A DNA stretch of 64,000 nucleotides. Source: Octopus vulgaris. Taxonomy: Eukaryota. The translations under genes and the position numbers were made by a program. The notes beneath the pieces were generated by a model. The model ran no database searches, was not told where the DNA came from, and was given only the letters and a program-made list of their open reading frames with translations. The stretch spans positions 64,046,001 to 64,110,000 of the forward strand of contig OX597819.1 of the NCBI GenBank assembly GCA_951406725.2, written 5' to 3'. The first letter of the stretch is position 1, and every line of letters begins with the position of its first letter. This document shows positions 23,072 through 27,690 of the stretch, one piece after another.

Positions 23072-23236
23072 GTGACAATTAGTTAGTTGTCAAAATGAAA
23101 CTCAGAGTTTCGGATGCCGGGGCTGAAGTCTGCTCTAGCATCTCATCAGTTATTAATAACTCATGAGATGCTGGAGCAGACTTCCGCCCCAGTATCCGAA
23201 ACTCTGTGTTTTATTATGACAGCCAACAATTGTCAC
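23072..23236. mobile_element. 165-bp palindrome of two divergent hammerhead-bearing arms (Penelope-like terminus)
   Basis: Symmetry axis in gttattaataac (23149-23160). Minus arm: CTGATGA-gatgc..gcatc-c-GAAActctgagtt. Plus arm: CTCATGA-gatgctgg..ccagtatc-c-GAAActctgtgtt-ttatta. Confidence 0.75.
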
Positions 23237-24532
23237 ATATCATATATATATATATATATATATATATATGAATCAAAGGTCTAAATATTTTCTCTAAAAA
23301 CTTATACACGAGGAAATCGTTGATAAATGAAAACTTAATATTCTGAATAAATTCTTACTCCCAATATATATAATGTGTATACACCATAAAAAATTTACAA
23401 ACACACACATACATACATGGCCGCACGAATAAATAGATACATATATATACAAAGACACATACATACACACACAGATATGTGCGTGTATGTTTGTGTATGT
23501 GCATTGCGGCTGTCCACTCATTACCGAGGAACACATTCGCAGGGAGTTAACAACACTGGGAACGTAGGAAGCTTATTCCTTAAAAGTATGTCCTAGCTGG
23601 TGACTAATTCACCCAACATTTGATAAAGTGACATGTTTGAAGGTACAGTAGATCAGGCTTTCGTCCTCCATTCACTACATGAGCATTTTCCCTTTGAAAT
23701 GAAAACTATTGGTCTTTCAAAACGAATCCATTCCTTCCTTCACTTGTTTCATCTAATGTTGGCGAGGTTAAGCAAAGTTTGATCTCCCATAATTCAAAAA
23801 CGTATAGGGAACGTAAGTAAATCATTTAGGGTGTTTCGTCAGGACCTTCCCAACGTGTAGTAACTTTCTTACGATAAAGGGAAAACTTTGTTTATTTAGA
23901 GCCCAATGCTCCGATGTGTTACCTACATATTCGATTTGCGGTTTAAATGTGAACTAAGAAGCCAGGTAACTGTCTTTGATTGCAGAGTCAGCAGCAGCAA
24001 TGCTACACGTGTAACCACGCTAAAATGCATCACTCACATCCTTTAGAAAACTGACCACAGCTAATCTACTATATTATTTTGGAATAAAATATTCCGTTAT
24101 AAATGTTTGTTTTTTAATGAAAAATCCTCAGCGATACCCTTTTCGCGACAGCGTTTCGAAATGTGGACGTTATGGACAGAACACCTTTTATACAACACGA
24201 CAAAAGTAGAAATTGTATAACAAATGAACTAACACTAAGAAGCATGAGTCAGACACACTTATTTTCATAGATCGCCATGACAGCAGTTTTAATCACCGTT
24301 TTTTATCAAAAGACTTACTTTGCCATTTAGCAAGCAAAAACTATGCACATCACTCAGAATTTGCCTTTCGACGAATGTGCTGTTCTGGTCACCGATTTAT
24401 ATACACATAAAGGTTTAATATGGCAGTTATAATATTTCTTTGTCCAGCCAGAAGTATGTATATGTGTTAGGCTTAGACATAACTGTTGTAACGTGTCGAC
24501 CTACGCGTATGTCAAAAAACGTCCAACTTAAT

Positions 24533-24775
24533 TTATATAAATATATATATATATATATATATATATATATATATATATATATATATATATATATATATAT
24601 ATATATATATATATATATATATATATATATATAAATATAATATATATATATATATATATATATATATATATATATATATATATATATATATATATATATA
24701 TATATATATATATATATATATATATATATATATATATAATATATATATATATTTATATATATATATATATATATA
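24533..24775. repeat. (TA)n microsatellite
   Basis: Direct reading. Confidence 0.95.
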
Positions 24776-25077
24776 AATGCTATTAAGTTAGACATGGCCT
24801 GGGCCAATAATGGCCGAAACCTATCAAAGTATCAAAGTATATATATATATATATATAATTAATCAATATAGGGTGGCAAAAAAATTTTGTAGAATTCTTT
24901 TGCCACCAGCGGCCTAGTGGGAAAAATTTAAATAGTCATAAACCATTTTTAAGTTCAACATCACAATCAAGGAACGGCCATAATAGGCCATTCACCCACT
25001 AGAAATAACAGCCAAAAGCTTCAACCGCAAAATAACTCCGTAAACCAGGAGAAAATTAAAAAAACATTTACCCTGTA

Positions 25078-25184
25078 ATTTCTTATACGATGCACCGTTT
25101 CGTCTACTGTTTAATGGTACACTAACCTGATTAAATTAAATCAAGCCAATCTACCATAGGCCCTTAGATTCATCAGTAAGAAAT
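25078..25184 (-). ncRNA. Type I hammerhead ribozyme, copy 1
   Basis: Minus strand: atttctta-CTGATGA-atcta..(long helix II)..tagac-GAAA-cggtgcatcg-TA-taagaaat. 8-bp helix I, 4-bp helix III with UGCA loop, GUA triplet. Confidence 0.8.
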
Positions 25185-25567
25185 AGCCAAGTCGGAACAG
25201 ATATTTTTCACGAGGCATTCCCGTCCCTGCCTCGGCAATATCTGACCTAAAATTTTCAAATCGTCGCACTCGCGCCAAATTTATCGGCAGCAAATAAATA
25301 TAAGCCGCCGATTCCATTACGGAATTAACCAGAAAATTCATAATTAATCAATATAGGGTGGCAAAAAAATTTTGTAGAATTCTTTTGCCACCAGCGGCCT
25401 AGTGGGAAAAATTTAAATAGTCATAAACCATTTTTAAGTTCAACATCACAATCAAGGAACGGCCATAATAGGCCATTCACCCACTAGAAATAACAGCCAA
25501 AAGCTTCAACCGCAAAATAACATCAATTCCGTAAACCAGGAGAAAATTAAAAAACATTTACCCTGTA

Positions 25568-25674
25568 ATTTCTTATACGATGCACCGTTTCGCCTACTGT
25601 TTAATGGTAAACTAACCTGATTAAATTAAATCAAGCCAATCTACCATAGGCCCTTAGATTCATCAGTAAGAAAT
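25568..25674 (-). ncRNA. Type I hammerhead ribozyme, copy 2
   Basis: Same fold 490 bp away; helix II base reads taggc-GAAA. Confidence 0.8.
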
Positions 25675-25792
25675 AGCCAAGTCGGAACAGATATTTTTCA
25701 CGAGGCATTCCCGTCCCTGCCTCGGCAATATCTGACCTAAAATTTTCAAATCGTCGCACTCGCGCCAAATTTATCGGCAGCAAATAAATATA

Positions 25793-26109
25793 TATAATAT
25801 ATATATATATATATATATATATATATATATATATATATAAATAATATATATATATATATATAAATATATATATATATAATATATATATATATATATATAT
25901 ATATATATATATATATATATATATATATATATATATATATATATATATATATATATATATATATATATATATATATATATATATATATATATATATATAT
26001 ATATATATATATATATATATATATATATATATATATATATATATATATATATATATATATATATATATATATATATATATATATATATATATATATATAT
26101 ATATATATA
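25793..26109. repeat. Long (TA)n microsatellite (~315 bp)
   Basis: Direct reading. Confidence 0.95.
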
Positions 26110-26137
26110 CGAGAAAGAAGCAACAAGAATGGATAAG

Positions 26138-26230
26138 ATTTTAGTACAATCGTTTCATACAAAGACAGGCTTTATTAAAAGTTGCAAAAATTGCAGCATA
26201 TAAACGTGTCCCGTACTCATCAGCTAAAAT
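26138..26230 (-). ncRNA. Type I hammerhead ribozyme (inverted arm)
   Basis: Reverse complement of the motif at 26948-27038. Confidence 0.8.
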
Positions 26231-26947
26231 ACATGTGAGTTCTCTTGACATCTTAGTGGTTGAGGCTATACTCATGAAGTAATGTAGATAATTAAGTAAC
26301 ATAAACAGATTTCCAAAGTTCATTAAAGTTCATTTAGTCTCCCCCCCCTTTTTGCTCCCTCCTCCTTTATATTCTCTCTTTTCCTCTCTTTCCTTCCCTT
26401 TCTGTTCTTTGCCTCTCTAGAAAGCCCTTCAGCCTTTAAAAGTCAAATAGCTACAGTCTCTTGAAAATAGCAGTAATGTGATTAATGTGGCAAATACCTA
26501 ATCATATAGCAAGAATTGATACCTACCTCATTGTGTTCAACCATTGATAAATTTATCGTCTGTGAATATGAAATTCCTCTTCATTTCTCTGGAAATTTAC
26601 ATCTACACCATTGGAAATTGTACACCTATACAAAGGATTAATTCACCCTCTCTGTAATGCTAATAAGCAGGAATTGGTACCCACCTCGTTGTGATTAACC
26701 ATGGATAAATTTGTCGTCTGTGAGTATGTAATCCCTCCTCATATCTCTGGAAATTCATATGTACACTATGGATTAAGTCACCTTCTCTGTGATGCTATTA
26801 AAACTTTTTTAAAAATCTGTGATAAGACTGTACATCATCTTTAAAGAACTTTAATGAACTTTGGAAATCTGTTTATGTTACTTAATTATCTACATTACTT
26901 CATGAGTATAGCCTCAACCACTAAGATGTCTAAAGAACTCACATGTA

Positions 26948-27038
26948 TTTTAGCTGATGAGTACGGGACACGTTTATATGCTGCAATTTTTGCAACTTTT
27001 AATAAAGCCTGTCTTTGTATGAAACGATTGTACTAAAA
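26948..27038 (+). ncRNA. Type I hammerhead ribozyme
   Basis: ttttag-CTGATGA-gtacgggaca..tgtctttgtat-GAAA-cgattg-TA-ctaaaa: perfect 6-bp helix I, extended helix II, short near-palindromic helix III, GUA triplet. Confidence 0.82.
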
Positions 27039-27185
27039 ATTTATCCATTCTTGTTGCTTCTTTCTCGCTTATAATCACCCCACATTACTGTATTGTTAAA
27101 ACCGTATAGTTTTTTGGTGCATCTAAGTTAGGTACCATATTCAAGTAAATTCATTAAAATTGACTTGAATCTTTATTGCTTTTTG

Positions 27186-27340
27186 TATATATATATATAT
27201 ATATATATATATATATATATATATATATATATATATATATATATATATATATATATATATATATATATATATATATATATATATATATATATATATATAT
27301 ATATATATATATATATATATATATATATATATATATATAT
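27186..27340. repeat. (TA)n microsatellite
   Basis: Direct reading. Confidence 0.95.
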
Positions 27341-27690
27341 TCTCTGATAAATTTCTTCGAAATTTTTACCGGCATCCTCTCTGTCGCCGGGTATAATCTG
27401 CGTCTGCGCAGTGGTCTGAAAAGTTAGAATATACAGGCAGTTAGTTTTACATGTGCATCTGGCTGTGTTGTGTATTTGAAATCGAAAAGCTGTCCCACTG
27501 ATGAAACTGGCCTTCAGCAAATACGTTTTTGCTGGAAATAGTTAGAAAACATGGTCTGGGAAATAATTGAGATGGTAAACATTTTTAATTTTCATTCCTT
27601 TCGAACATTTATCCTTCTTTGGTGGTTTTGAATTCTCTACTGCTCTTTCTAGCACAAGGCTTTCCTATTTGGAAGCCTCTTATTGTATTT
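27341..27690 (+). mobile_element. Solo ~350-bp HHR-bearing element between (TA)n tracts
   Basis: Unique-looking island bounded by TA repeats and containing the HHR at 27493-27561. Confidence 0.6.
27493..27561 (+). ncRNA. Type I hammerhead ribozyme (GUC triplet), helix III mismatched
   Basis: tccca-CTGATGA-aactg..ttcagcaaa(tacgtt)tttgctgga..tagtt-a-GAAA-acatgg-TC-tggga: helix I tccca/tggga is perfect. Confidence 0.72.

Follow-up and report, generated by a model that had tools for sequence, protein, structure and literature searches.

A 64,000-bp stretch of the Octopus vulgaris genome (contig OX597819.1 of assembly GCA_951406725.2, positions 64,046,001 to 64,110,000; called the window below) contains, in its 23-28 kb region, four elements with hammerhead ribozyme motifs, designated A, B, C and D, set among long (TA)n tracts. 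Elements A and C are identified as ends of coding Penelope-like elements (PLEs) of the Hydra type, B and D as related non-coding repeats, and all four are probably independent insertions into TA made by Penelope-type target-primed reverse transcription. The family identities, the coding parents of A and C, the two fixed 3' ends that join TA, and inverted insertions with one short and one tailed end were observed directly. The pile-up itself would follow from a common target that is hit more often the longer it is, probably with a mild feedback and no special system.

Searches of the 2.8-Gb genome (227 contigs) returned 1687 first-look candidates for C, 1547 for B, 1440 for D and 1116 for A, with 40 scored per family. 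Best-copy identity is 98-99% for C, 97-98% for B, 91-95% for D and about 82-88% for A, an unequal divergence that fits arrival at different times. The ends of C were found to enclose reverse transcriptase (RT) and GIY-YIG nuclease frames at 94-100% identity in L121, L170, L171 and L172. The 957-aa frame of L170 contains the motifs RWK, DKT, CxCX5C, CxxC and CxH and no CCHH; the family unit is about 4.65 kb long, with a 3' untranslated region (UTR) of ~1.5 kb. The Pfam GIY-YIG match on L121 is weak and under the cut-off (E=0.0038), and Pfam gave no match for the RT part. C in the window is identified as the truncated, inverted 3' end of a coding Hydra-type PLE. Its 3' UTR also contains a 104-bp internal direct repeat (84%; window 26508-26611 and 26666-26769).

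For A, a GIY-YIG frame was found ~950 bp upstream in L286, L273, L275, L289 and L264. Because these nuclease frames are about 70% identical to that of a young coding sister family, A in the window is read as a pair of ends, both truncated, that derive from an older coding PLE of the Hydra type; for family A proper the coding evidence comes from the nuclease part, the RT and the RWK and DKT motifs having been read in the sister copy L322. The sister (L320-L327, L290-L319) is itself a very young Hydra-type family, in which 150/150 scored nuclease copies are identical. It contains intact 717-codon frames in a unit of ~2.6 kb, L322 encoding 708 aa with RT and GIY-YIG, and it provides the best material for insertion-site studies. 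The coding parents show the features of the Hydra clade: one open reading frame (ORF), a C-terminal GIY-YIG domain, CxCX5C without CCHH, CxxC and CxH in the nuclease, a type I hammerhead in the pseudo-long terminal repeat (pseudo-LTR), and insertion into (TA)n. The assignment is based on these protein motifs and the insertion pattern.

Elements B and D are classed as ORF-less tandem retrozymes with a type I hammerhead motif in each unit. B forms tandem and inverted arrays of 490-bp units, with up to 5-6 units elsewhere in the genome; D has ~454-bp units, found as partial tandems at other loci and as a single truncated copy in the window. No real ORF of 120 aa was found in the region, and among 59 loci no RT or nuclease was contiguous with B or D. 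Both show PLE-type tails and inversions. Downstream of the cleavage site, the direct alignment of B with D is modestly significant (p=0.015, 400 shuffles); an intermediate family in L045 aligns with both (p=0.0025 in 3/4 comparisons, 0.015 in the fourth), D aligns with family F (p=0.0025), and neither B nor D shows alignment with A or C. The shared 3' module comprises a long-range helix of 8-12 bp, with a distance of about 85 nt between its two strands, which enclose the short end; a conserved run and a hairpin follow ahead of the tail end. The inner helix positions vary by family yet pair, with a mean of 3.9/5 within representative types versus 2.7 across them; the types are not independent of each other, and 2/12 pair poorly. 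A 19-base pattern that stands for two further families with the module is matched exactly at 1948 places, and its reversed control at 0. One covarying 3' helix at RT start sites, kept by several divergent retrozyme families, is a candidate helper-recognition signal.

These identifications revise the preliminary description of the region. Its placement of the elements in the Penelope-like world is borne out, and the RT and GIY-YIG ORFs that it proposed to seek at shared termini were found for C, with nuclease frames for A. The term non-autonomous fits the non-coding B and D, but not A and C. The four families had been called unrelated and said to share only the catalytic core; this is wrong for B and D, given their structured 3' module, and the RTs of C and of the sister of A are 33% identical.

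Further elements were found as well. In L334, a Neptune-type nuclease lies 950 bp upstream of a copy of the module; it was considered as a helper and proved to be part of a separate element. It belongs to a large, young Neptune-type PLE family (L334 2468-2992, minus; L370, L374) with 781-codon frames and a zinc-finger linker, whose copies end in TA and have a terminus that resembles a minimal, variant hammerhead. A ~360-bp hammerhead unit in a tandem and inverted array was encountered in the background sample (L200 2100-4750), and a tail-only short stub of another family with the B/D 3' module lies between TA tracts in the window at ~44550-44700 on the minus strand.

Insertion into TA was compared with a background of sixty 10-kb stretches taken at round coordinates (~600 kb), which has a TA cover of 2.7% and contains 15 strict motifs in 8 elements. 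An end was counted as TA-adjoining when at least 4 TA units lay within 33 nt of the family end, in best-scoring copies with the window locus excluded and with a few internal junctions mis-parsed as ends. Such ends make up 52/53 for C, 32/33 for B, 29/40 for D, 39/57 for A and 51/51 for the sister of A, compared with 7.0% for a random point. The proposal that the elements target (TA)n is supported genome-wide. The 3' ends of every family fall at two fixed points separated by 70-112 nt, and 58 of 60 outward-facing pairs consist of a short end and a tailed one; A and C in the window conform. An origin of the fixed ends in microhomology was discounted, as the TA overlaps are 2-6 nt only and D stops upstream of a longer internal TA run. 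In one of the 60 pairs (L123), 8 identical unique bases stand beyond the TA tract on either outward side, apparently an inverted duplication of the target. A three-base AT-rich run was observed at 34/42 A tail ends, 0/15 A short ends and 4/873 background tracts, and (CT)n at 3/21 D short ends; these end-specific repeats show that element ends seed other microsatellites, whether by target duplication, slippage or synthesis.

All seven hammerhead motifs of the preliminary description were found where it had placed them, four of them intact (two each in B and C) and three damaged (one in D, two in A). A type I hammerhead structure descriptor with stem filters, run across the whole window, detected 5 cores with stem I of at least 5 bp, and the 4 motifs of B and C pass every filter; in 100 block shuffles, passing motifs averaged 0.03 and never exceeded 1. 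The D motif fails the stem III filter through a substitution at the base of stem III in the window copy; 11/14 other aligned D copies are intact there. The descriptor picks up neither A arm in the window. Inspection by eye shows that the core is substituted in the plus arm and that a mismatch in stem I lies beside the cleavage site in the minus arm. Other A copies in the genome pass, and the sister family has a core variant at position 4. Rfam reported no hammerhead, with 0 matches at gathering score and none among 65 matches to E=10. This silence is read as a limit of the models for a long stem II, because the descriptor finds 15 motifs in the 600-kb background and 0 in ten shuffles. Minimum-energy folds contain stem I and the long stem II in B (z -4.3, -6.4) and D (z -2.3); in C the hammerhead fold was not recovered (z 0.3, 0.5). 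Self-cleavage of B and D is predicted from motif and fold.

Does insertion add TA? Young ends (n=135) were observed to adjoin TA tracts with a median of 41 nt, 8% being shorter than 20 nt, and in the youngest family 0/51 ends have less than 20 nt of TA. A uniform cut of length-biased background tracts predicts a median of 15 nt with 60% below 20 nt, or 24 nt with 41% below 20 nt when pieces shorter than 8 nt are dropped (p=3e-15). A cut with a 30-nt duplication predicts 34 nt, and an uncut length-biased tract 36 nt, the latter being indistinct from the observed lengths (p=0.12). Adding up the first pure run on each side of 12 paired insertions in the youngest family gives a median of about 81 nt (by hand); the 90th percentile of background tracts is 50 nt. 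Either TA was gained, or very long tracts were chosen and cut centrally. Host repeats served as a proxy for empty sites: 4/128 insertions have a homologous pair, all in a microsatellite-bearing repeat resembling a short interspersed nuclear element (SINE).

One source of such a gain would be the enzyme itself: the RT of PLEs, which is related to telomerase, might stutter TA or other short repeats at the start of the cDNA, so that insertions manufacture their own target. The excess of the young-end median over the 15-24 nt of a plain cut and the end-specific repeats at A tails (34/42) and D short ends (3/21) speak for this. These lengths are, however, equally compatible with long tracts being cut near the centre, with a long target duplication, with slippage at a later time and with whole length-biased tracts; the A tail repeat may be part-templated, no tandem A copy having been seen; the four insertions with empty-site homologues lie in pre-existing microsatellites; and in vitro work on another PLE reports, in the passages available, no repeat addition (PMC11167929). 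Stuttering is accordingly regarded as improbable. Its corollary is held to be just as doubtful, namely that one tract becomes two full-length tracts with each RT-extended insertion, and that coding elements and module-recruited retrozymes in this way build their own microsatellite habitat. If the enzyme did add repeats, PLE and telomerase chemistry would be linked and microsatellite-rich genomes partly explained. For the very young families, with hundreds of near-identical copies, the flank lengths call for one of two things, a net gain of TA or a bias towards long tracts.

Clustering of different families was suggested by the preliminary description and is seen as a 2.2-fold excess that falls short of significance: foreign strict hammerhead elements number 7 in 234,676 bp of flank (95 loci) and 8 in 599,900 bp of background (p=0.098). 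Loci of a hammerhead-free stub, E, have a similar rate (2/71,900 bp), which points to a shared TA-rich habitat and not to a hammerhead-specific effect. TA-bridged neighbours of different families were found elsewhere, at L157, L164, L019, L057 and L290; those at L157 5856-7580, with long interrupted TA-rich stretches, and at L164 1866-2810 are stacks of different hammerhead families. That the cluster is simply an extreme draw from independent insertions is considered less likely; this explanation overlaps with the reading of independent, TA-targeted insertion except in denying any feedback. The background rate corresponds to a Poisson expectation of 0.06 per 4.6 kb (by hand), or about 20 such stretches with three strict elements in 2.8 Gb, so the selected cluster is itself unsurprising; adding damaged families raises the expected number, and the flank excess is compatible with chance. 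Less easily accommodated are three tracts of 155-326 bp within 2.8 kb, the 99th percentile of pure arrays in the background being 107 nt. In addition, among 120 far tract sides another hammerhead-type end is present with confidence on 8 and possibly on as many as 16, versus 30-49 of 1003 background sides in hammerhead-type clusters (36 clusters listed), both counts having been made by eye and without length matching. Fragments of a single SINE-like repeat, which has a microsatellite inside it (label by eye), occupy 89 of the 1003 background sides, and the four insertions that have empty-site homologues are located in or at this repeat. The possible contribution of the hammerhead elements to the extreme TA load thus looks modest, and much landing ground is supplied by other elements.

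The layout of the region is given in Table 1. B, C and D are parted by (TA)n alone, as had been noted for the last three elements; A lies 1.26 kb off across single-copy DNA and reaches further left than its earlier start at 23072, to about 23011. The tracts are unusually long, which raises the question of a mis-join that brought the elements together, and contigs of 4 sequencing runs cover the spacer, none of them bridging a long TA tract. A mis-join is nevertheless considered highly unlikely: the assembly is chromosome-scale, and, as milder arguments, similar TA-bridged neighbours occur at other loci and each element is internally complete, with family-typical ends that obey the rule. E was rejected as a fifth hammerhead element, being a hammerhead-free stub of a repeat resembling a long interspersed nuclear element (LINE). 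Many near-identical E stubs elsewhere likewise have TA on both flanks, and TA tracts therefore also gather retroelements of the non-hammerhead kind. The window as a whole is rich in simple repeats (repeat scan). It also contains broken RT frames of a non-LTR retrotransposon at 247-2211 on the plus strand (label by eye), and tandem pairs of a ~180-bp unit, which we take to be SINE-like, at 8908-9244 and 36923-37290.

Table 1. Features of the 23-28 kb region, in window coordinates.
Feature	Position	Strand	Description
TA tract left of A	22981..23010		(TA)n, then short three-base AT-rich repeat, at A tail end
Element A	23011..23240		Head-to-head pair of 5'-truncated pseudo-LTR ends, assigned to an older coding Hydra-type PLE
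A, left arm		-	~70-nt tail; hammerhead motif damaged
A, right arm		+	Short end; hammerhead motif damaged
TA tract right of A	23242..23269		(TA)n adjoining A short end
Spacer	23270..24533		Mostly single-copy, without hammerhead
TA tract	24534..24775		(TA)n, 242 bp
E	24776..24838	+	63-bp 3' stub of LINE-like repeat with short tandem tail, hammerhead-free (label by eye, from longer copies)
TA tract left of B	24839..24857		(TA)n at B tail end
Element B	24858..25792	-	1.9 copies of 490-bp non-coding unit; left, tail end; right, 5'-truncated
B hammerhead motifs	25176-25086, 25666-25576	-	Type I, one per unit
TA tract B/C	25784..26109		(TA)n, 326 bp
Element C, inverted arm	26110..26334	-	Pseudo-LTR, hammerhead motif 26223-26145, short end
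Element C, sense part	26329..27185	+	Last ~520 bp of 3' UTR, pseudo-LTR, 112-nt tail
C hammerhead motif, sense part	26954-27032	+	
TA tract C/D	27186..27340		(TA)n, 155 bp
Element D	27341..27690	+	5'-truncated single copy of ~454-bp non-coding unit, short end
D hammerhead motif	27498-27556	+	Stem III substitution
Repeats right of D	27690..27887		Short (CT)n, then interrupted (TA)n

How might the four elements have come together? From published PLE biochemistry, the GIY-YIG nuclease would cut both strands of (TA)n, and the RT would begin at two positions inside the RNA, which would produce both the tail and the inverted arms. This machinery would be borrowed by B and D, likely via their shared structured 3' module. 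A to D would each have been inserted independently, at different times, into a TA microsatellite, and since the target is shared and length-dependent, long tracts would be hit repeatedly, each hit likely leaving a pair of usable tracts, whether through duplication of the target or through slippage afterwards. Several points weigh against this account. The loci are best-scoring copies, a choice that favours young and complete ones; 11/40 D ends and 18/57 A ends have no near TA, some of them being mis-parsed internal junctions and many A tails carrying another repeat first. The surplus of foreign hammerheads in the flanks falls short of significance, and self-cleavage and transcription of A-D are presumed. 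Family C appears larger than a typical Hydra element (~4.65 kb against 'generally <3 kb'), with an assignment made from motifs. Among 30 module loci there was no coding element bearing the B/D module; the module was unseen in the Hydra-type families (C, A, the sister of A and the 64% family) and, by eye, is absent from three Neptune-type 3' ends (3/25 loci). With these reservations, independent target-primed insertion into TA remains the preferred reading, and the region offers a neat instance of Hydra PLEs and retrozymes that target TA and accumulate in long microsatellites.

Hydra-type PLE ends, PLE-mobilised retrozymes and their shared (TA)n target are already known. The shared 3' module and the flank-length excess are new relative to the literature passages considered here, to which all comparisons below refer; the supplement of Li, Clavereau and Pollet (2026, 10.64898/2026.07.22.740005) may list cephalopod families. 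No report of TA extension by PLEs or of the B/D module was found in these passages or in the titles listed, no search having been aimed at the module. Active Penelope-like families have been described in an octopus genome (PMC13282606).

In the Hydra clade (Craig et al., 2021, PMC8557442), almost all families insert into (TA)n, the motifs RWK, DKT and CxCX5C are present and CCHH is absent, elements are 'generally <3 kb', and a PLE tail at one end is described. The clade has been recorded in Octopus before: Hydra-1_Obim is listed with a (TA)n preference and a hammerhead, and one of the proteins described here resembles its supplement entry by eye. As in these PLEs, the families described here have a single ORF with RT and GIY-YIG, CxxC and CxH motifs, a pseudo-LTR hammerhead, (TA)n insertion, tandem and inverted copies and a one-end tail. 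Unlike in them, family C is longer (957-aa ORF, ~4.65-kb unit, ~1.5-kb 3' UTR), the tails are 70-112 nt compared with 30-40 bp, stem II of the C hammerhead is 60 nt, and the window holds truncated ends only.

B and D resemble the non-LTR retrozymes of metazoans (Cervera and de la Pena, 2020, PMC7229834) in being dispersed, AT-rich, ORF-less tandem units with a single type I hammerhead. PLEs co-exist with retrozymes and have been proposed to mobilise them (PMC7229834; 10.64898/2026.07.22.740005). At 490 and ~454 bp, B and D are at or above the 150-450 bp quoted in the two papers, and they differ from retrozymes in showing PLE-type tails, inversions, (TA)n targeting and a multi-family 3' helix module; the word microsatellite is absent from the main text of PMC7229834. 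For B and D, the self-cleavage and monomeric circular RNA of retrozymes are predicted from sequence.

The Poseidon PLE of Anolis was studied in vitro (Frangieh et al., 2024, PMC11167929) and was found to use two internal start sites and to have both strands cut. It belongs to another clade, its starts lie within the ORF a few tens of nt apart, and it is directed to a short AT motif instead of a microsatellite. It nevertheless shares with the octopus families two fixed internal starts that define the tail, cutting and extension of both strands, and an AT-rich target.

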